Of a DNA stretch of 64,000 nucleotides, positions 5,689 to 62,885 are shown in pieces (positions within the stretch are counted from its first letter, which is position 1; each line of letters opens with the position of its first letter). The notes under the pieces were generated by a model. That model was given only the letters and a program-made list of their open reading frames with translations, had not been told where the DNA came from and did not search any database. The stretch is taken from NCBI GenBank assembly GCA_028715785.1, contig JAQURC010000001.1:204766-268765 (forward strand), written 5' to 3'. The stretch is from Candidatus Omnitrophota bacterium (GTDB lineage: Bacteria; Omnitrophota; Gorgyraeia; Gygaellales; Profunditerraquicolaceae). Made by a program: the position numbers and the translations under genes.

Positions 5689-5764
5689 TCCCCCTTAGCT
5701 CAGTTGGTAGAGCGAGAGACTGTTAATCTCCAGGTCCTAGGTTCGAGTCCTAGAGGGGGAGCCA
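5689..5764 (+). tRNA. tRNA-Asn (anticodon GTT)
   Basis: Cloverleaf with acceptor TCCCCCT/AGGGGGA, anticodon loop CUGUUAA, T-loop GTTCGAGTC and an encoded CCA. Confidence 0.9.
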
Positions 5765-6145
5765 TCTTTACGATTCCGCAAACCTTGAAGGTTAGCGGTT
5801 AACGCCTTACTCTTCGGAGTGAGGCGTTTTTGTTAGCGGAGATCACTCGGTAAAATTTGCTGCAGGGATGGTATATATAAGTCCAAGGCTATGTGGTTGA
5901 TTAATGCGGGGAGGGATTCTAGGGTATTGCCAGTCCTTGGAGTGGTGTCACTTTGCGCCACAGAAGCCTTACCGGGGATCAAGCATATTGTTCCAGACGT
6001 CTGTAATAATCCGGTTGGGAATTATCGGTATCCTAATTTAAGATTACGCTGGCATAGTATGCATTATTTTAAAATTAATTGCCACTAAGAAGAAAAGATG
6101 TATAATAAACAAATAAAGGGGCTACAAAATAAGCAAGGAGAAGAA

Positions 6146-7111
6146 ATGGCGACGTCAGAACAGATTAAGGCTTTGATCCGTTCCCACTACGACGATAATT
6201 CAGAGCAATTCTTTTCGACTGTATTACAGATTGCGGCCCATGAAGCACGCCAGGGGCATGGAGAGTTGGCCCATGAGATTCGCGATCTTGTTGATAAAAC
6301 TAGGAAAGAAAAATCTGAGAAGAATGTTCTGGTTTTCCCTCAGGAACTTAACGGTCTTATTTTTTCTGAAAAACCAGATGTTCCGTTATCAACCCTTGTT
6401 GTTAGTGATCAACTAAAGGTTAGGATTGAAAGAATCATAACTGAATTTCGCCAGCAAAATAAACTTAAAAACCATGGTTTGATTCATCGTAGAAAAATAC
6501 TTTTAGCCGGTGCGCCAGGAACAGGTAAGACTATGACGGCTAAAGTTCTGGCATCAGAATTAAAGCAATTATTACATATTATTCAGATGGACCGTCTTGT
6601 TACAAAATTTATGGGTGAGACTAGCGCAAAACTTAGGCAGATTTTTGATAAAATGTTGGTAATGCCGGGAGTTTATTTATTTGATGAGTTTGATGCTATC
6701 GGTAGCGAAAGAAACTTAGAGAATGATGTTGGTGAAATGCGCAGAGTGTTGAATTCTTTTCTACAGTTTATTGAAAAGGATACGTCAAATAATTTAATTA
6801 TCGCAGCTACAAATAACTTACGTTTACTTGATCGTGCATTGTTTCGAAGATTTGATGATGTTCTTCATTATGGTCTCCCGGAACAAACCTCCCGCTCTAG
6901 ATTAATCATGAATGTTCTAAGTACCTTTCGCGATAAGGATTTTTCTTTAGAAAGAGCTGCTAGGATTGCCGACGGACTTAGTCAAGCCGAAATTGATCAT
7001 GTCTGTAGAGATGCAATAAAGTTAACAATTTTAGACAATAAAGATTTCGTTGCCTCTAATTTATTTGAGAGTCTGTTAAAAGAACGCCGCTCAGCCTGTC
7101 AGAAAAAGTAA
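6146..7111 (+). CDS. AAA+ ATPase (classic AAA clade), ietA-like
   Basis: Walker A GAPGTGKT, Walker B LFDEFD and second region of homology ATNNLRLLDRALFRRFD. A strong RBS AGGAGA precedes the ATG at 6146, and the ORF is also open from 6098. Confidence 0.7.
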   Translation: MATSEQIKALIRSHYDDNSEQFFSTVLQIAAHEARQGHGELAHEIRDLVDKTRKEKSEKNVLVFPQELNGLIFSEKPDVPLSTLVVSDQLKVRIERIITEFRQQNKLKNHGLIHRRKILLAGAPGTGKTMTAKVLASELKQLLHIIQMDRLVTKFMGETSAKLRQIFDKMLVMPGVYLFDEFDAIGSERNLENDVGEMRRVLNSFLQFIEKDTSNNLIIAATNNLRLLDRALFRRFDDVLHYGLPEQTSRSRLIMNVLSTFRDKDFSLERAARIADGLSQAEIDHVCRDAIKLTILDNKDFVASNLFESLLKERRSACQKK

Positions 7112-7123
7112 CAATCATTAGTT

Positions 7124-9601
7124 ATGCCCAATAAAAGATTTCAGCATCTTTTTATTAAAGAAGCTCATACCGCAAAAAATTTTACAAGCACTTCATCCGG
7201 TGGCACTAAGCCACGCATTCCCGTTCGAGAAATAGAAGCCCACAGCCGTTTCCTCCAGGAAAAATTTAACGCCGCATGGACTCAAGCCCAAAATAAGCAG
7301 GCCGTAATACATGCTGCTAGGGAGGGGGTGTATATTGAATTTAAAGGTGATCCCGGGTATGAGTTAGTTACTAAAAGCTTGGAAGATATGCGTTCAAAGA
7401 GGATTCGATTATTAAATGTTCGAACTGAAAAAGAAGGTGAATTGCCAGTTATTTATGCCACTGTATATGTCCCCAATGATAAGAAAAATCATTTTCTAAA
7501 AAAAATTCAAGAGTATGCAGCAGAAAAATTAGAAACAGACCCGCCTAAAAATGCTTCATTGATTAATAGTATAGCAGATATCAGGGAAGCCATTATGGTT
7601 GAGTCATTTTGGCAAGATAAAAAAGAATTAATCCCTTCTACAGATGGCGCCTGGTGTGAGGTCTGGCTGAGTAGCGATAAAGAAGCAGTGCTGCAAAGAT
7701 TTAATGATCTGCTTGTTCGTGAAGAGATTAGGGCAGCCGATGGTTTAATAAAGTTTCCGGAGAGGATGGTGAAATTAATCTTTGTCAATAAAAGACAGCT
7801 AGAACGCCTAACGACATTATCTGATGATATTGCAGAATATCGTTTAGCAAAAGAAACAGCTGCTTTATTGCTAGAAATGGAAAACAAAGATCAAATGGAA
7901 TGGGTTAAAGATTTATTGTCGCGATGCCAAGTTAATCCTAACCCTAATGTTTCTGTTTGTATACTGGATTCTGGTGTAAATAACGGCCACCCGCTGCTTT
8001 CGTTAGTATTAAATAATGATGATTGTCAGGCTGTTGATAATAGTTGGGGGGTAGATGATCATGATGGGCATGGTACCCTTATGGCCGGGTTGTCTGCTTA
8101 TGGCGACTTACTGGCCTGTTTATTTAATAATCAAGCTGTTCGTCTGTACCACTGTCTCGAGTCTGTAAAAATGCTTCCCCCTCCGCCACAGAAAAATGAA
8201 GTAAAGCTCTGGGGGTATATTACCGATCAGGCAGTTAGCAAGGCTGAAATTAAGGCTCCTGAAAGAAAACGCATCGTATGCATGGCCATAACTTCAACTG
8301 ATACTCGAGATCAAGGTCGTCCTAGTTCTTGGTCGGGTCGTATAGATCAGCTCGCAATCGGAGAGGATAACGGAAACAAGAGGCTTTTTATTATATCCGC
8401 GGGGAATATGGATATTGATAGTATATTAAATTATCCTGATGCGCAAGAGATAGAATCTGTTCATGATCCGGCTCAATCATGGAATGCGCTTGTTGTTGGG
8501 GCGTATACCAAATTTGATCAAATAACAGACCGGACTTTTGCAGGTTTTATCCCAGTCGCCAAAGCCGGGGGACTGTCTCCTTTTAGCACAACATCTCAAA
8601 CATGGGAAGGTAAGTGGCCAGTCAAGCCTGATATTGTTATGGAGGGCGGGAACGTAATTCATGACGGCAAGGGATTCTGGGACCATCCAGGGGAAGTTTC
8701 TCTTTTGTCTACTTATCGTGATACGACAAAAAGTCATTTTCGTTTATTTAATATGACAAGCGCTGCAACCGCACAAGCTGCTTGGTTTGCTGCCCAAATT
8801 CAAAATATTTATCCCGATATTTGGCCAGAAACTATTCGAGCTCTTATGGTGCATTCATCGGAGTGGACTGATACTTTAAAAGCTCAATTCTTACCGGCAC
8901 AACCCACAAAAACAGATTATTCTAGGCTTCTGCGTATTTGTGGTTACGGAGTGCCCAATTTAACAAGAGCACTTTACAGCGCAGCAAATAATTTAACACT
9001 TATTGCTCAGTCTGAGCTACAGCCTTATGACAGAGAAGAAGGTGCAAGTAATTACAAAACAAAGGAAATGCATCTTTATGATCTGCCTTGGCCGAAGGAA
9101 GTCCTGCAAGAATTACCGCCAGATATTAAGGTTCAAATGCGTATTACCCTTTCTTACTTTGTAGAACCTGGACCAGGAGAAATTGGATGGAGGGATCGTT
9201 ATCGCTATGCTTCTCATGCGTTACGGTTTGATATAAAGTCTCCCAGCGAAACAAAAGAGCTTTTTCAAAAAAGAATAAATTTGGCAGCCAGAGAAGAGAA
9301 AGAAGGTCATCCTGGCACTCAAGGCGCATCAGATCACTGGACAATCGGGTCTAATGGTAGAGACAAGGGTTCGATACATTCTGATATTTGGGATGGTAAT
9401 GCTGCAGATCTGGCTGAATCGGGCGTAATTGCTGTTTATCCTGTAATCGGTTGGTGGCGCGAAAGAGCTTATCTTGGGAGATGGAACCAGAAATGTAGGT
9501 ATTCAATTATCGTTTCAATAATGACCCCTGAAGAAAAGATAGACATTTACACTCCTGTTGCGCATAAAATTGGTATTGCCGTACCCATTCCTATCAGCTA
9601 A
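7124..9601 (+). CDS. S8 family subtilisin-like serine peptidase (825 aa), ietS-like
   Basis: Catalytic triad motifs in order: ILDSGV (Asp), DGHGTLMAG (His) and MTSAATAQAA (Ser, GTSMA-like). Lies 12 nt after the AAA ATPase gene. Confidence 0.75.
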   Translation: MPNKRFQHLFIKEAHTAKNFTSTSSGGTKPRIPVREIEAHSRFLQEKFNAAWTQAQNKQAVIHAAREGVYIEFKGDPGYELVTKSLEDMRSKRIRLLNVRTEKEGELPVIYATVYVPNDKKNHFLKKIQEYAAEKLETDPPKNASLINSIADIREAIMVESFWQDKKELIPSTDGAWCEVWLSSDKEAVLQRFNDLLVREEIRAADGLIKFPERMVKLIFVNKRQLERLTTLSDDIAEYRLAKETAALLLEMENKDQMEWVKDLLSRCQVNPNPNVSVCILDSGVNNGHPLLSLVLNNDDCQAVDNSWGVDDHDGHGTLMAGLSAYGDLLACLFNNQAVRLYHCLESVKMLPPPPQKNEVKLWGYITDQAVSKAEIKAPERKRIVCMAITSTDTRDQGRPSSWSGRIDQLAIGEDNGNKRLFIISAGNMDIDSILNYPDAQEIESVHDPAQSWNALVVGAYTKFDQITDRTFAGFIPVAKAGGLSPFSTTSQTWEGKWPVKPDIVMEGGNVIHDGKGFWDHPGEVSLLSTYRDTTKSHFRLFNMTSAATAQAAWFAAQIQNIYPDIWPETIRALMVHSSEWTDTLKAQFLPAQPTKTDYSRLLRICGYGVPNLTRALYSAANNLTLIAQSELQPYDREEGASNYKTKEMHLYDLPWPKEVLQELPPDIKVQMRITLSYFVEPGPGEIGWRDRYRYASHALRFDIKSPSETKELFQKRINLAAREEKEGHPGTQGASDHWTIGSNGRDKGSIHSDIWDGNAADLAESGVIAVYPVIGWWRERAYLGRWNQKCRYSIIVSIMTPEEKIDIYTPVAHKIGIAVPIPIS

Positions 9602-9868
9602 TATTTTTTGTATAACATATTGCCAAAGTTATAATTTTGAGGAAGAGGGTGGTACTTTGGGAACGTCCCCGAACCAACTTTAACGGCTAAAGAAAGGATC
9701 GTTATTCGACCAGGCCATTCCTAAGCTTTTGGATGCTATAGGGGGTCAAAACAACCCCCGGGGTGGGTATGGTTTTTTGTTAAGAGTTAAGCAAAAGACC
9801 GTATTGCTTATCGTAGAAAATATCTCTGCAGATTTTGTCGGTTGCGAATGTGTGATACAGGCAGCCTT

Positions 9869-9896
9869 AGCCCTAGTGAAATCTAGGGCTTTTTTC
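9869..9896 (+). terminator. candidate rho-independent terminator inside the island spacer
   Basis: Stem AGCCCTAG/CTAGGGCT with a 6-nt loop, followed by TTTTTT. Confidence 0.4.
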
Positions 9897-10085
9897 TTGT
9901 ACGGACCAGGCAGCATCTTAAGGGAACATTTGAAGCCGGCGAGGGTTTCCGTTGGGGATATGAAATACCTTGATAATTCAAATGGTCAGGTTTAAGATAC
10001 CTTAGATGGAGATTTCAAAAGCTACTGTTAGGGTTATTATTAAAATACAAACTGTCAGGATTATGCTTTTTAAGCTATTGTAGAA

Positions 10086-11423
10086 ATGAAAAAAGACAAA
10101 AAAATAATATTATTAGGACTATCCGCAAAGCGCTTTTTTAGAAAAGTAAGAAGTAGATTAATCAGAAGGATTTATGATGGAGGTAGGGTATCTAAACAAA
10201 AAAGACATAAATATCATATTTCTTCAAGAAAACATTATGCAGAAATAAAAGCTTCAAAACATGGAGGATTAGAATCTATTACAATCAAAATTCCAAAGAA
10301 ATTTTGTTTTATTAAGGATCCCGTTGGTACAAGTAGATTTTTCGAGAGATTAAGAAAAAAATTTCATAAAGGTTTACCTCGCGATATTTTTATAGATCAT
10401 AAATCCACTGAAGAAATTGGCTTAGCTGCCTCTTTTTTATTCGATCAAATCATGAAAGAAGAAGCAAGGTTTTGGGCAGGGAGTAGAATCAAAATAAGGT
10501 TATCCGGAGTGATATCTGACTTTAAGCAAGTCAATAATTTCTTATTATCATTTGGAATTTTGAATGAGTTAGGTATTTCGCATAGGAATTTTGGTAACGA
10601 AAAAGTCGACGTTGACTATGCTGAGAAATATTATACTTTTAAAATGAGCGGTTCGAAAGCGAAACCTCAATTGGCAAGCTTTGCAAGTGTTGGCGTAGTA
10701 GAATATTTTAATACTTGTCTTGAATATAATGGATTCAAAATAGCGGATCCGGCAAGAATTTCACTTGTTGATAGAATGGGAGAGATTATTTGTAACGCAG
10801 AAGAGCACTGTGGGAATGAAAAAGGGGAATGGTTTGCTTTGGGGTGCTACAATAAAGAAACTCATAATTGTAGCTTTGCAATAATTAATTATGGAAAGAC
10901 AATTTATGAGACCTTATCTGATAAAGATTCCACTGCTTCTGATGTAATAGAGAATGTGCAAAAGATTATAGATAGCCATAGACCCTTTTGGCAGAAGATT
11001 TACGGTTTGATGTTTAAGAAAGAGCATGAAGAGCCTACTTGGAGTATTATGGCTCTACAGGATGGCATTAGTTCAAAAAGAACAAATACAGGAAGAGGAC
11101 GAACTAGAGGCCAAGGGATCATGGATGTTTTGAGTTTTATAGAATTGATTAAAGCCGGAAGCAATGGGGCTGAAATTTGCTTGCTATCCGGGCATTCGGC
11201 TGTTAAGATAGATTACAGTTATCCAATAATCGCTAAAGAGGTAGGGTCAGCAAAAGAAAAACGAAGGTTTATTACATTCAATAAGGAAAATGATTTAAAG
11301 ATTCCTCCTGACGGAGATAAGGTATTATTTTTTGACGATAAATTTCAAGGAACAATCTTTACTGGAAGTTTTAAGCTGGACAAAAAATATTTGGAAGAAA
11401 GGTTAAAGCAGGAAAATGGATAA
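10086..11423 (+). CDS. GHKL/histidine-kinase-like ATPase family protein (445 aa); RsbW-like N-box, no histidine kinase dimerisation/H-box seen
   Basis: N-box E-x3-N-A-x2-H in EIICNAEEHCG. Glycine-rich G-box-like segments QDGIS and GRGRTRGQGI. Basic N-terminus. Confidence 0.5.
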   Translation: MKKDKKIILLGLSAKRFFRKVRSRLIRRIYDGGRVSKQKRHKYHISSRKHYAEIKASKHGGLESITIKIPKKFCFIKDPVGTSRFFERLRKKFHKGLPRDIFIDHKSTEEIGLAASFLFDQIMKEEARFWAGSRIKIRLSGVISDFKQVNNFLLSFGILNELGISHRNFGNEKVDVDYAEKYYTFKMSGSKAKPQLASFASVGVVEYFNTCLEYNGFKIADPARISLVDRMGEIICNAEEHCGNEKGEWFALGCYNKETHNCSFAIINYGKTIYETLSDKDSTASDVIENVQKIIDSHRPFWQKIYGLMFKKEHEEPTWSIMALQDGISSKRTNTGRGRTRGQGIMDVLSFIELIKAGSNGAEICLLSGHSAVKIDYSYPIIAKEVGSAKEKRRFITFNKENDLKIPPDGDKVLFFDDKFQGTIFTGSFKLDKKYLEERLKQENG

Positions 11424-11763
11424 GTTAATTAATTTAGCTGATTTTCTCATAGGCAATGAAACTACTTTAGTTGGAAGGGATAATGGGGAAAATGTCTTTG
11501 ATAAGCTTGTTAAGGCAGGCTTAAGTTTCGTTGATCTTGAAAGTAAATTTGATAAAATAATCATTGGTATACCTGATAGAGTAGTCAGCATCAATAAATC
11601 TTTTTTTCTAGGTTTGTTTGAAACCGTCATTGAAAGATTAAAAAAGGGCGGTTTTTATGCAAAATATGATTTTGAAACAAGCGAGCATATTAAAAATAAA
11701 ATTGAAAGTCATGTAGATGCGGCCCTATTAAATGCAAGTCAAAAGGATATCTTAAATGCCTGA
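11416..11763 (+). CDS. small STAS-like protein resembling DUF4325 (115 aa)
   Basis: Pattern L-x-G-R-x-x-G…II-I-G-I-P-D-R-V-V-S-I-N-K-S-F-F-L-G-L-F matches the DUF4325 STAS-like consensus as I recall it. The start overlaps the GHKL gene by 8 nt. Confidence 0.45.
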   Translation: MDKLINLADFLIGNETTLVGRDNGENVFDKLVKAGLSFVDLESKFDKIIIGIPDRVVSINKSFFLGLFETVIERLKKGGFYAKYDFETSEHIKNKIESHVDAALLNASQKDILNA

Positions 11764-12346
11764 TCCTATTGTTAATTCTACAATAGCGCAAAATGCTGTT
11801 GCTGTTTCGGCTGCTGCTTTCAACCCTTCAGCTTTTTGGTCCATGTTGACTCTGGTATTCAACATAGTTCTTAGCATGTTTAATATTCTCTGGTTTCATA
11901 TTAAGCGATCAAACAAAAGAAAATATGAGCTGGAGTTTACATTTTATGAACTTTTAGTAATTAACTCTTCCAAAGATCTGATTGGGTTGTTATCAAAAAT
12001 GAAGAAAGAGTTAAACTCTTTAGCTCTTAAAGCCCGGGGCGGAATTAAAGCCGGATTTTCTAGGAAAGATGTAGAAGAACATATTGAGCACTTAGATCAA
12101 TTTATATTCGAATTACAGGTAAATACTATTCCACTGATTAAAGGATATTCAATGGATCTGGGAAGTAAAATTGATAAGTTAGTCGAAGATTGTCACGATC
12201 AAACGACAGATCTATTTAGCAAATTTGATCGTCAAACTATCCCCGTTGATTTAGAGAATAGGCTATATGGTAGCTTTTCAGTTCTGGAAACTCAATATCT
12301 TGAGCGTATATTTAAAAATATAAAAGAGTATTGTCCCCACTGTTAG
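11756..12346 (+). CDS. single-pass membrane protein with coiled C-terminal domain ending in CPHC (196 aa)
   Basis: Hydrophobic segment FWSMLTLVFNIVLSMFNILWF. Translationally coupled to the upstream gene by an ATGCCTGA overlap. Confidence 0.5.
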   Translation: MPDPIVNSTIAQNAVAVSAAAFNPSAFWSMLTLVFNIVLSMFNILWFHIKRSNKRKYELEFTFYELLVINSSKDLIGLLSKMKKELNSLALKARGGIKAGFSRKDVEEHIEHLDQFIFELQVNTIPLIKGYSMDLGSKIDKLVEDCHDQTTDLFSKFDRQTIPVDLENRLYGSFSVLETQYLERIFKNIKEYCPHC

Positions 12347-12573: not shown

Positions 12574-13149
12574 ATGAAAACCAAGAACGTTTATATTATT
12601 GCCGGCCCAAATGGTTCCGGTAAAACCACGTTCGCAAATGAATTCTTGCCGGAATACGCAAAATGCCAGAATTTTGTCAATGCCGACCTTATTGCACAAG
12701 GCTTATCGCCTTTTTCTCCCCGGGCAGCAGCAATAAAAGCCGGTAGGCTCGTATTAGAGCAGATCCGTAGTTTGGCAGAAAAGAATGTTGATTTTGCATT
12801 CGAGACAACCTTATCTGGTAAATCTTACGTGCGATTGCTAACAAGCTTAAAAAATAAAGGCTACACAATAAATCTTTTCTTTCTTTGGATTCCCAACGCC
12901 GAGTTTGCTTTGGGTCGTATAAAAGACAGGGTAGCCAGTGGCGGACATGATGTACTCGCAGCAGACGTAAAACGAAGATTTAATAGAGGGATATATAATT
13001 TCTTCAAATATTATAAGCCTTTATCCGATACTTGGTTATTATTCAATAACGCAGACGCTATACCTCGCCTAATTGCCAGAGAGAAAGACGGGAAAACGGA
13101 TATTATTGATAAAGAAATGTATGAGAAAATAATAAAATTCACGAGGTGA
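12574..13149 (+). CDS. zeta-toxin-like / AAA_33 P-loop kinase family protein
   Basis: N-terminal P-loop YIIAGPNGSGKTT. Size and motif spacing fit the zeta toxin family. Confidence 0.6.
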   Translation: MKTKNVYIIAGPNGSGKTTFANEFLPEYAKCQNFVNADLIAQGLSPFSPRAAAIKAGRLVLEQIRSLAEKNVDFAFETTLSGKSYVRLLTSLKNKGYTINLFFLWIPNAEFALGRIKDRVASGGHDVLAADVKRRFNRGIYNFFKYYKPLSDTWLLFNNADAIPRLIAREKDGKTDIIDKEMYEKIIKFTR

Positions 13150-13154
13150 ATCTA

Positions 13155-13316
13155 ATGACAAAAAAGACATTACAGTTAAAAGCCATAAAAGCGCTCAAAG
13201 AAGCCGTGCGTAAAGTAGTAGAGGAGCATAAGCACAGCGGTCGGCGTCTTGTTGTGTGGCGTAATGGTAAATTAATGCGGATACCCGCTTCTCAAGTGTT
13301 GCGAAAAGCCAATTAA
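13155..13316 (+). CDS. unannotated 53-aa ORF directly downstream of the kinase (possible antitoxin/partner)
   Basis: ATG lies 6 nt after the kinase stop. Translation is MTKKTLQLKAIKALKEAVRKVVEEHKHSGRRLVVWRNGKLMRIPASQVLRKAN. Below the 60-aa cutoff of the ORF track. Confidence 0.35.
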   Translation: MTKKTLQLKAIKALKEAVRKVVEEHKHSGRRLVVWRNGKLMRIPASQVLRKAN

Positions 13317-60851: not shown

Positions 60852-60935
60852 ATGGTGCGGGAGGAGGGAGTTGAACCCTCAAGGGTTGCCCCACACGCTT
60901 CTGAGACGTGCGCGTCTGCCATTCCGCCACCCCCG
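60852..60935 (-). tRNA. tRNA-Leu (anticodon CAG), type II with long variable arm
   Basis: Acceptor GCGGGGG, anticodon loop CUCAGAA, long variable arm and an encoded CCA. Confidence 0.85.
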
Positions 60936-61060
60936 CAAAAATCAGATTAAGTATATCTTAGCGCAATACTCCTGTCAATTAGTTATCAATTCCGGTTATA
61001 AATGAATTGCGGCAAGGATTTTTTGCTGTTATAATAATAATTTACTAAAGAGGAGAAATA

Positions 61061-62474: not shown

Positions 62475-62885
62475 GGGGGTGAAAGGGTTCGACTTAAGAT
62501 ATGTCGGATAAAAGCAGCATGCCGCGGACGCATGGTTAGCCGCGTTAATAACCCGTGCACAATATAAACGCAAACACAAACACGCAAGTGTTCAATCGCT
62601 TAGCGCCAAAAACAGCAATGTTTTTAGCGCCTGTAGCGGGCGTACCAGCCTTCGGACTTCATTAAGTCCGAAGCCTCTAACCGTCTACGCCTACGGGACG
62701 GATTAGGGCCTTAGTAGGATAGCTCCGGTGGTTGCCTTTGAAGCCGGAGCGAAATTTAAAAGGCTGCTCCTTGCAAATCCTGCCATGTAGAAGTTGCAAG
62801 GTTAAGATAAATTACAAGGCTAAGCATGTAGCGGCTTTTATTTGATTACTTAAGGACGGCGGTCCGATTCCGCCCACCTCCACCA
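62475..62885 (+). ncRNA. ssrA: transfer-messenger RNA (tmRNA)
   Basis: 5' GGGGGTGAAAGGGTTCGAC pairs with the 3' CACCTCC-A-CCA end, including a G3:U wobble. T-arm GGCGGTCCGATTCCGCC. Lies directly after smpB. Confidence 0.85.

Follow-up and report, generated by a model that had tools for sequence, protein, structure and literature searches.

A mobile three-gene cassette encoding a CapK/VapK-type kinase homologue, a putative STAS-like protein and a membrane protein: a candidate membrane-acting branch of kinase-controlled toxin-antitoxin or phage-defence modules

The closest described relatives of the genes analyzed here are the kinase-STAS systems CapKS and VapKSC. CapK is a kinase that consists of helix-turn-helix (HTH), STAS and GHKL domains, is switched on by single-stranded DNA and phosphorylates a conserved serine of CapS, a repressor in which a STAS domain is joined to a winged HTH (wHTH); phosphorylation of CapS leads to de-repression of the downstream immune operons (CBASS, Bub and Thoeris) (Chambers et al., EMBO J 2026, PMC13373217). 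The VapKSC operon encodes VapK (STAS-GHKL, 302 amino acids (aa)), VapS (116 aa, a STAS domain with a C-terminal helix and the conserved S48) and the PIN toxin VapC, which is released upon VapS phosphorylation; the system protects against phage Bas42, is located near defence genes in 36% of the cases, and is discussed by its authors with an emphasis on the blurred boundary between defence and stress response (PMC13373217). Both kinases contain a conserved aromatic residue in the STAS-GHKL groove (CapK W68, VapK F54; PMC13373217). Descriptions of the kinase-STAS pair date only from 2026 and cover two kinds of output, namely, a transcriptional repressor and a PIN toxin. Here we describe a three-gene cassette (positions 10086-12346) within a 64,000-nucleotide (nt) stretch of a Candidatus Omnitrophota genome (contig JAQURC010000001.1, positions 204,766 to 268,765; hereafter, the window, to which all coordinates refer unless a locus is named), which suggests a third output, a membrane protein. 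No membrane effector for kinase-STAS systems is mentioned in PMC13373217, and none was found in a literature search. The original prediction made for this DNA knew of no described system with such a composition; the related VapKSC system has now been published.

The cassette comprises three intact open reading frames (ORFs) on the + strand. Gene 1 (10086-11423, 445 aa) encodes a CapK/VapK-like STAS-GHKL serine-kinase homologue; gene 2 (11416-11763, 115 aa), a probable divergent DUF4325-type STAS-like protein that occupies the position of VapS and CapS and is a candidate kinase substrate and antitoxin; and gene 3 (11756-12346, 196 aa), a single-pass membrane protein with a helical cytoplasmic domain, a candidate effector or toxin. 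The overlaps between the ORFs, predicted originally, are read directly from the sequence as two 8-nt junctions, ATGGATAA and ATGCCTGA, and the three genes are translationally coupled. All 20 distinct loci that offered enough sequence for the comparison (individual loci are denoted by L numbers below) have this layout: behind gene 1 come a gene for a 105-128 aa protein and one for a transmembrane (TM) protein of 181-225 aa, in that order, and neighbouring genes either overlap or are separated by no more than 49 nt. The layout holds down to about 25% identity of gene 1, and the flanks are all different; such recurrence amid unrelated flanks is more than expected by chance. The trio is always found together, and its locations include defence islands, integrative elements, plasmids and a prophage. 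Taking the evidence below as a whole, we hold with modest confidence that the cassette is a self-contained, horizontally mobile module of a CapK/VapK-type kinase and a STAS substrate, with a membrane protein in the effector position of VapC, and that it probably represents an undescribed membrane-acting branch of kinase-controlled toxin-antitoxin or phage-defence modules.

The secondary-structure map divides the gene 1 product into a basic helical N-terminus, a STAS-like domain and a GHKL domain. The N-terminal extension (residues 1-58; 10086-10259, +), in the place of the HTH of CapK, contains 21 K/R against 3 D/E residues, in agreement with the very basic N-terminus noted originally; its consensus among the homologues is KRFxRxxRSxLKxKL, and it may contact nucleic acid or the membrane. 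It is followed by a STAS-like beta-alpha domain (residues ~60-195; 10263-10670, +) with the conserved IP70, H105, S116 and D120, a domain that was not part of the original prediction, and by the GHKL (Bergerat) kinase domain (residues ~196-440; 10671-11405, +) with an enlarged ATP lid of ~70 residues. The model of this domain has the predicted Bergerat alpha/beta sandwich fold, the lack of which was to count against the original assignment, along with an N-box of the form E-x3-N-x3-[HD] and a G2 box. The N-box EIICNAEEHCG (residues 233-243, with E233, N237 and H241; 10782-10814, +), already recognized in the original prediction, aligns with SELIGN218VRDHS of CapK and WEIYANSFEHS of VapK. The G1 box FAIINYGKTI (residues 264-273; 10875-10904, +) aligns with VVDFGVGI of VapK (D190) and VISDSGLGI of CapK. 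The lid motif IMALQDGISSKR and the G2 box RTRGQGIMD (11046-11126, +) have their counterparts in VapK (WACQSGNTT...PRGLGL) and in CapK (HALKNGGLS...ARGLGL).

Across 101 homologues, E233, N237 and H241 of the N-box and Q325, G327, S329, R341, G342 and G344 of the lid and G2 box are invariant or nearly so, such that the family-wide lid motif is L324-Q325-x-G327-[IV]-S329 and the G2 box is R341-G342-x-G344; further conserved residues are G270, S368-G369, N399 and G422 and, in the STAS part, P70, S116 and D120. The canonical G1 box D-x-G-x-G is not preserved: gene 1 reads N268-Y-G270-K-T272, whereas CapK and VapK carry Asp at the position that matches Asn268. This position is occupied by Asn in 46 of 48 close homologues; among 53 distant ones, the counts are 41 for Asn, 7 for Asp and 3 for Ser. 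Given that Asn268 falls at the adenine-contact site, kinase competence of gene 1 is not to be taken for granted; conversely, the invariance of all the other catalytic residues argues for it. As for the glycine-rich, G-box-like segments that had been proposed, the G2 box is present, and the G1 box is the Asn-containing segment above. The segment QDGISS was rejected as the G1 box because it sits in the ATP lid. Histidine kinase identity was rejected as well, the model containing no DHp/H-box domain, just as the original prediction had it. In the profile searches that it had called for, gene 1 of the window has no match to Pfam HATPase_c or HATPase_c_2 at E up to 10, and the sole family matched repeatedly, HATPase_c_2 (the RsbW/SpoIIAB type), is seen in 7 of 48 homologues at scores that stay below threshold (best E=0.0024).

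A separate observation concerns the STAS-like domain of gene 1, which keeps a near-invariant Ser116 and Asp120 (A-S-x-x-[FM]-D; residues 113-121, 10422-10448) where the second helix of the domain begins; the residue in place of Ser116 is Gly in CapK, and VapK has no Ser there. Ser116 could be an intramolecular regulatory or autophosphorylation site. The possibility that this domain and gene 2 are recent paralogues was discarded, hhalign having detected no similarity between them.

Profile comparisons, for which the CapK, VapK and VapS sequences were taken from the supplement of PMC13373217, indicate that gene 1 is a remote homologue of CapK and VapK, with no BLAST-level similarity. The same PHROG, phrog_3364, is matched by VapK (3.6e-38), CapK (1.5e-12) and gene 1 of the window (8.8e-10), as well as, over the full length, by the gene 1 homologue of L028 (1.9e-11). 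The profile of 101 gene 1 sequences aligns with CapK across STAS and GHKL domains (hhalign E=1.3e-5, 80% probability, 219 columns) and with VapK over 286 collinear columns, with a score of 29.7 that exceeds those of all 30 shuffles (maximum 26.4). Gene 1, CapK and VapK have in common the lid (ALQxG[IV]S) and G2 (RGxG) motifs; the features of the CapK/VapK type found in gene 1 are the STAS domain directly N-terminal to the GHKL domain and the detectable profile relationship, and in all 20 loci gene 1 is immediately followed by a STAS-type gene with an invariant serine (Ser62 in the window). To the groove aromatic residue (CapK W68, VapK F54), the sequence alignment assigned no counterpart in gene 1. 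Searches with VapK itself yielded one locus in a metagenome scan, too few for a family profile, and two matches in tblastn against plasmids.

Two phage loci contain VapK-sized genes. In Streptococcus phage Javan172 (L025, MK448860.1, 3058-4336), a VapK-like 'ATPase-like protein' of 307 aa (phrog_3364, 1.2e-36) is encoded beside a VapS-like 114-aa protein (phrog_9989), both between the prophage repressor and the integrase; this pair is followed only by a 39-aa non-hydrophobic ORF, with no obvious effector. Francisella phage vB_FhiM_KIRK may possess a second, VapK-sized kinase-STAS-membrane trio (Fhv_0046-0048): according to the published table (PMC7924643), the cI repressor and the integrase flank a hypothetical protein of 293 aa, a DUF4325 protein of 112 aa and a TM protein of 125 aa.

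Gene 2 shares with its close homologues (24 sequences including itself) the invariant residues G20, R21, G24, E25, P53, N60, S62, F64, L65 and G66. Among these, Ser62 (codon at 11599-11601, +, in SINKS62FFLG) is the candidate phospho-acceptor. In the AlphaFold2 model (pLDDT 91.8), it comes after strand 47-51, where the long helix 61-83 begins, a place that, judged by motif and secondary structure, is also that of SpoIIAA S58, CapS S54 and VapS S48. The residue is invariant in 24 of 24 close homologues and in 20 of 20 loci, and we infer that it is phosphorylated. Neither gene 2 of the window nor its 23 close homologues match DUF4325 (PF14213), the family named in the original prediction, but that family is the only one recurrently matched by the gene 2 orthologues of the distant trios: against a Pfam gathering score of 23 bits, the orthologues scored 23.2 bits (L010), 23.1 (L022, Slin_6672), 21.5 (L026), 20.1 (L028), 14.4 (L027, E=0.031) and 12.7 (L019, E=0.11). 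Since gene 2 of the window is in turn homologous to Slin_6672 (hhalign, 97.6% probability, E=2.9e-12), it qualifies, by transitivity, as a probable divergent DUF4325-type STAS-like protein. The search of the gene 2 model against the PDB with Foldseek produced nothing, the VapS entry 9Z7O being newer than the fold library, and hhalign gave no significant alignment of the gene 2 profile to either VapS or CapS. VapS itself matches DUF4325 strongly (2.7e-17, 62.7 bits) and belongs to PHROG 9989, against PHROG 37359 for gene 2.

Gene 3 contains a single TM helix (residues 26-49; 11831-11902, +) identified by hydropathy and adjoined by the basic KRSNKRK, so that, under the positive-inside rule, an N-out/C-in orientation is predicted. 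All 20 versions of this gene have the same architecture, namely, a hydrophobic helix close to the N-terminus, then basic residues, then a helical region of ~140 residues; gene 3 contains neither a PIN nor any other Pfam domain. At the sequence level, the conservation is poor: the mean identity is 22%, the sole residue conserved at 90% or more is D148, a sequence search with gene 3 returned only 3 matches, and there are no relatives in Pfam, PADLOC, PHROGs or PDB sequences. The single TM helix and the CPHC terminus noted originally are both there in the window, but the latter is not a conserved tail: it reads CPHC in L012, CPNC in L001 and CPQH in L013, and is absent elsewhere. A functional redox or zinc motif of the gene 3 family was therefore discarded, CPHC being missing beyond the closest relatives. 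A marginal PADLOC match of gene 3 to PDC-M50A (E=0.021, residues 7-58) probably reflects TM composition only.

The gene neighbourhoods could be assessed in 15 annotated contexts (the figures are raw counts). Strong, PADLOC-confirmed defence neighbours are found within a few kb of the trio in 5 of these 15. The trio is accompanied by an MmeI-type restriction-modification (RM) system, PDC-S19 (1.6e-127) and an integrase in L001; by PDC-S06 (8.8e-256) in L009; by ThsB (4e-69), a type II restriction endonuclease (1.5e-132) and an insertion sequence element in L026; and by a type I RM system (HsdR 1e-207) in L027. In L028, it directly follows a prophage holin and endolysin, that is, occupies a moron position. 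Other copies reside in an element with an integrase, an excisionase and a relaxase-like gene (L008) and next to a transposase (L005). On plasmids, the trio lies between two tyrosine recombinases in Pantoea agglomerans pAR8b_C (WP_116585177-79), corresponds to Slin_6671-6673 of Spirosoma linguale pSLIN01 and, in Providencia vermicola, is the principal cargo of a 6.8 kb MOBQ plasmid (L023, NZ_CP145939.1). The window cassette encodes neither a sigma factor nor a PP2C phosphatase, nor is either found around the trio in 14 other loci with annotated neighbourhoods. A sigma-factor partner-switch operon, the context named originally as one that would speak against a defence role, was thus rejected.

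Several details of these loci deserve mention in their own right. In L023, the kinase gene spans the origin of the record and is unannotated, so that only the 116-aa and 186-aa genes are listed, and a gene for a 193-aa 'tRNA modification GTPase' is convergent to the trio. In L026 (435-1429), the neighbours of the trio include a ThsB-TIR protein (4e-69) paired with a PDC-M50A protein. The most divergent locus, L010 (gene 1 homologue P0061, 24% identity), contains an extra 382-aa gene (131-1279) with no Pfam domain that overlaps the start of the kinase gene, which suggests a four-gene variant.

The family defined by gene 1 is large and anonymous. A hidden Markov model search with a 48-sequence profile identified at least 1296 clusters (50% identity) at E<=1e-3, of which 544 at E<=1e-30; nearly all the matches are full-length (420-480 aa), all the clusters are unnamed, and the family is absent from Pfam, NCBIfam and PADLOC. 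The 61 word-indexed homologues of gene 1 are, every one, annotated as hypothetical, and one of the homologues, from a Candidatus Omnitrophica metagenome-assembled genome, is 100% identical. The family spans Omnitrophota, Ignavibacteriota, Spirochaetota, Myxococcota, Bacteroidota and Gammaproteobacteria. No DNA match was found in complete E. coli genomes; the trios of the window, Pantoea, Spirosoma and Providencia all lack a system match in PADLOC-DB v2.0; and the profiles of gene 1 (whole, and STAS part), gene 2 and gene 3 produced only chance or coiled-coil matches to PDB sequences.

By analogy with VapKSC, the following mechanism can be proposed. In the resting cell, the gene 2 protein would bind the cytoplasmic domain (residues 50-196) of the gene 3 protein and hold it inactive. 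An infection or stress cue, perhaps single-stranded nucleic acid to which the basic N-terminus or the STAS-GHKL groove of gene 1 binds, would activate the kinase, which would phosphorylate Ser62 of gene 2 and cause the complex to dissociate. The freed gene 3 protein would then oligomerise and damage or depolarise the membrane, resulting in arrest or death (abortive infection) or in a penalty for the loss of the element (addiction). The reading of the three genes as a kinase-STAS-membrane module, put forward in the original prediction, is supported, with the amendments that gene 1 has a STAS domain of its own, that a related system is now published and that CPHC is not conserved; the three-gene neighbourhood across genomes, which it had singled out as a check, recurs in all 20 loci examined.

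Several observations weigh against this interpretation. The Asp of the G1 box is replaced by Asn in most members of the gene 1 family, as judged from the alignments. Direct Pfam, NCBIfam and PADLOC scans of genes 1-3 gave no match at E<=0.1 save for the marginal PDC-M50A match of gene 3. No relatives of gene 1 were detected by tblastn against GenBank phages or by a pattern scan of IMG/VR, and prophage carriage was found only through L028 and the PHROG matches. About 4 of the 15 annotated contexts (L003, L010, L019 and L020) show no obvious defence or mobile neighbours. Finally, the poor conservation of gene 3 would fit a sensor or anchor, rather than a toxin, too.

The last point leads to an alternative in which the kinase itself is the output of a membrane-anchored partner switch: gene 3 would be a sensor or anchor responding, for instance, to envelope perturbation or phage DNA entry, and gene 2 would be a pseudo-substrate inhibitor. 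The fast evolution of gene 3, the fastest of the three genes and with one residue only conserved at 90% or more, is what would be expected of a sensor facing variable invaders, and the near-invariant Ser116 of gene 1, absent in CapK and VapK, hints at additional intramolecular regulation. We nevertheless regard this alternative as unlikely, and the same grade applies to its sequel, in which the released gene 1 protein phosphorylates host or phage proteins or else sequesters a target as SpoIIAB does with sigma-F. Gene 1 most closely resembles anti-sigma factor kinases, which sequester as well as phosphorylate, but in no locus is the trio accompanied by a gene for a sigma factor, a DNA-binding protein, a PP2C phosphatase or another target, and in the relatives that have been characterised, the output runs through the STAS protein, which is the substrate, and the third gene encodes the effector (PMC13373217).

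If the membrane protein is the output after all, the same kinase-gated toxin-antitoxin wiring might serve the stabilisation (addiction) of mobile elements or a stress response rather than a dedicated anti-phage function, being selected because it maintains plasmids or islands or because it responds to DNA damage. Such a role would account for the small mobilisable Providencia plasmid on which the trio is the main cargo and for the copy between two recombinases on the Pantoea plasmid, and several chromosomal copies lack defence neighbours; the stress laid by the VapKSC authors on the blurred line between defence and stress response (PMC13373217) points in the same direction. As an exclusive explanation, it appears rather improbable, given the five contexts with PADLOC-confirmed defence neighbours, the copy in a prophage moron position and the protection that VapKSC affords against a phage (PMC13373217), although the two roles are not mutually exclusive. 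Least probable, in our assessment quite doubtful, is that gene 1 is a pseudokinase or binds another ligand, and controls genes 2 and 3 by binding alone or via another nucleotide. The prevalence of Asn268 in the family, compared with Asp in CapK and VapK, is the reason to consider it. When engineered, the Asp-to-Asn substitution in the GHKL G1 box is a classical ATP-binding-null mutation in Hsp90, GyrB and MutL. Then again, Asp, Asn and Ser are all capable of hydrogen-bonding the purine, and the invariance of E233 and N237, which are catalytic and bind Mg, and of R341-G342-x-G344 in 101 sequences, and that of Ser62 in 20, is hard to explain without phosphotransfer.

As the original prediction had it, the cassette lies in a tRNA island beside an ietAS-like pair. 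Its GC content is 33.3%, compared with 44.2% in the window as a whole, and the low-GC stretch to which it belongs begins at a tRNA-Asn gene (5689-5764); the IetA-IetS defence pair (6098-9601, +; PADLOC IetA 3.2e-68, IetS 3.6e-30) lies directly upstream, in the same island. The spacer between ietS and gene 1 is 484 nt long (9602-10085). It contains a terminator-like hairpin (9869-9890) with a T-run (together 9869-9900, +), a pattern match from a consensus scan, and a weak candidate sigma-70-like promoter, TTGATA-17-TAAGAT (9970-9998, +; 9 of 12 matches), promoter-like sites being no commoner than in shuffled sequences; together, these two elements suggest that the trio is probably its own transcription unit, separate from IetAS. 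Another GC-rich hairpin-like stretch occurs in the spacer near 9740-9775. The Rfam scan of the cassette and spacers revealed no family above noise (best MicX, E=0.94). Directly downstream of the cassette, in a region of 40% GC within the same low-GC island (12574-13316, +), is a gene for a zeta-toxin-like P-loop protein of 191 aa (Pfam Zeta_toxin, 4.9e-10), the end of which overlaps a 56-aa ORF by 4 nt; together they possibly form a toxin-antitoxin pair. A transfer-messenger RNA gene (62475-62885) and a tRNA-Leu(CAG) gene (60853-60936), both unrelated to the cassette, are located towards the far end of the window.

In its broadest form, our interpretation is that the cassette is the founding member of a widespread anti-phage or addiction family, so far without a name, in which a CapK-like kinase frees a single-pass membrane toxin by phosphorylating a DUF4325 antitoxin; the kinase would have a nucleotide pocket remodelled by the G1 Asp-to-Asn change, a larger lid and, possibly, a self-regulatory serine (S116) in its own STAS domain. 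We put this forward tentatively, as a proposition that could nearly as well be right as wrong; if true, the kinase-STAS systems would gain their first membrane-effector branch. If the model holds, it adds a new defence or addiction system for annotation pipelines, extends the modularity principle of phosphorylation-gated antitoxins, provides cultivable test cases in the plasmids of Pantoea agglomerans, Providencia vermicola and Spirosoma linguale, and offers a natural experiment on the G1-box Asp of the GHKL kinases.

Comparison with known systems delineates what is distinct in the cassette. From the SpoIIAB-SpoIIAA and RsbW-RsbV pairs, the trio differs in the lack of a sigma factor or PP2C phosphatase, in the STAS-like domain that gene 1 itself possesses, and in its mobility and its presence in defence-island contexts. 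Small membrane effectors are known in abortive-infection and toxin-antitoxin systems, such as the TM effectors of CBASS, Thoeris and Detocs variants, and RexB. The putative output of gene 3 would be similar, namely, membrane collapse upon release or activation, but no relationship of gene 3 to any of these is detectable at the sequence or profile level, and the proposed trigger in the cassette is serine phosphorylation of a STAS antitoxin. With CapK-CapS, the cassette shares the three-part kinase (N-terminal module, STAS and GHKL), the best profile match to gene 1, the lid motif AL[QK]xGxS and the STAS gene (a candidate substrate gene in the cassette) directly after the kinase gene. However, gene 2 lacks a wHTH DNA-binding domain and hence is not a transcriptional repressor, the N-terminus of gene 1 is a basic helix with no recognisable HTH, and downstream there is one small membrane protein instead of a multi-gene immune operon. 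The differences from VapKSC are that the third gene encodes a single-pass membrane protein rather than the PIN nuclease VapC; that gene 1 is ~140 aa longer than VapK, with the basic N-terminal helix and a lid ~45 aa longer, is only remotely similar to it (hhalign E=2e-3) and has Asn for the G1 Asp; and that gene 2 belongs to a PHROG other than that of VapS, with which its profile cannot be aligned. Nevertheless, VapKSC is the closest counterpart in overall design: both are three-gene operons with the order kinase, small STAS protein, effector (a candidate role in the case of gene 3); both kinases combine a STAS domain with a SpoIIAB-like GHKL domain and match phrog_3364; the two STAS proteins, of DUF4325 type (probable in the case of gene 2), are ~115 aa long, have a C-terminal helix and show a conserved Ser where helix 2 begins; and both systems frequently have defence neighbours, 36% in PMC13373217 against 5 of 15 annotated contexts here.

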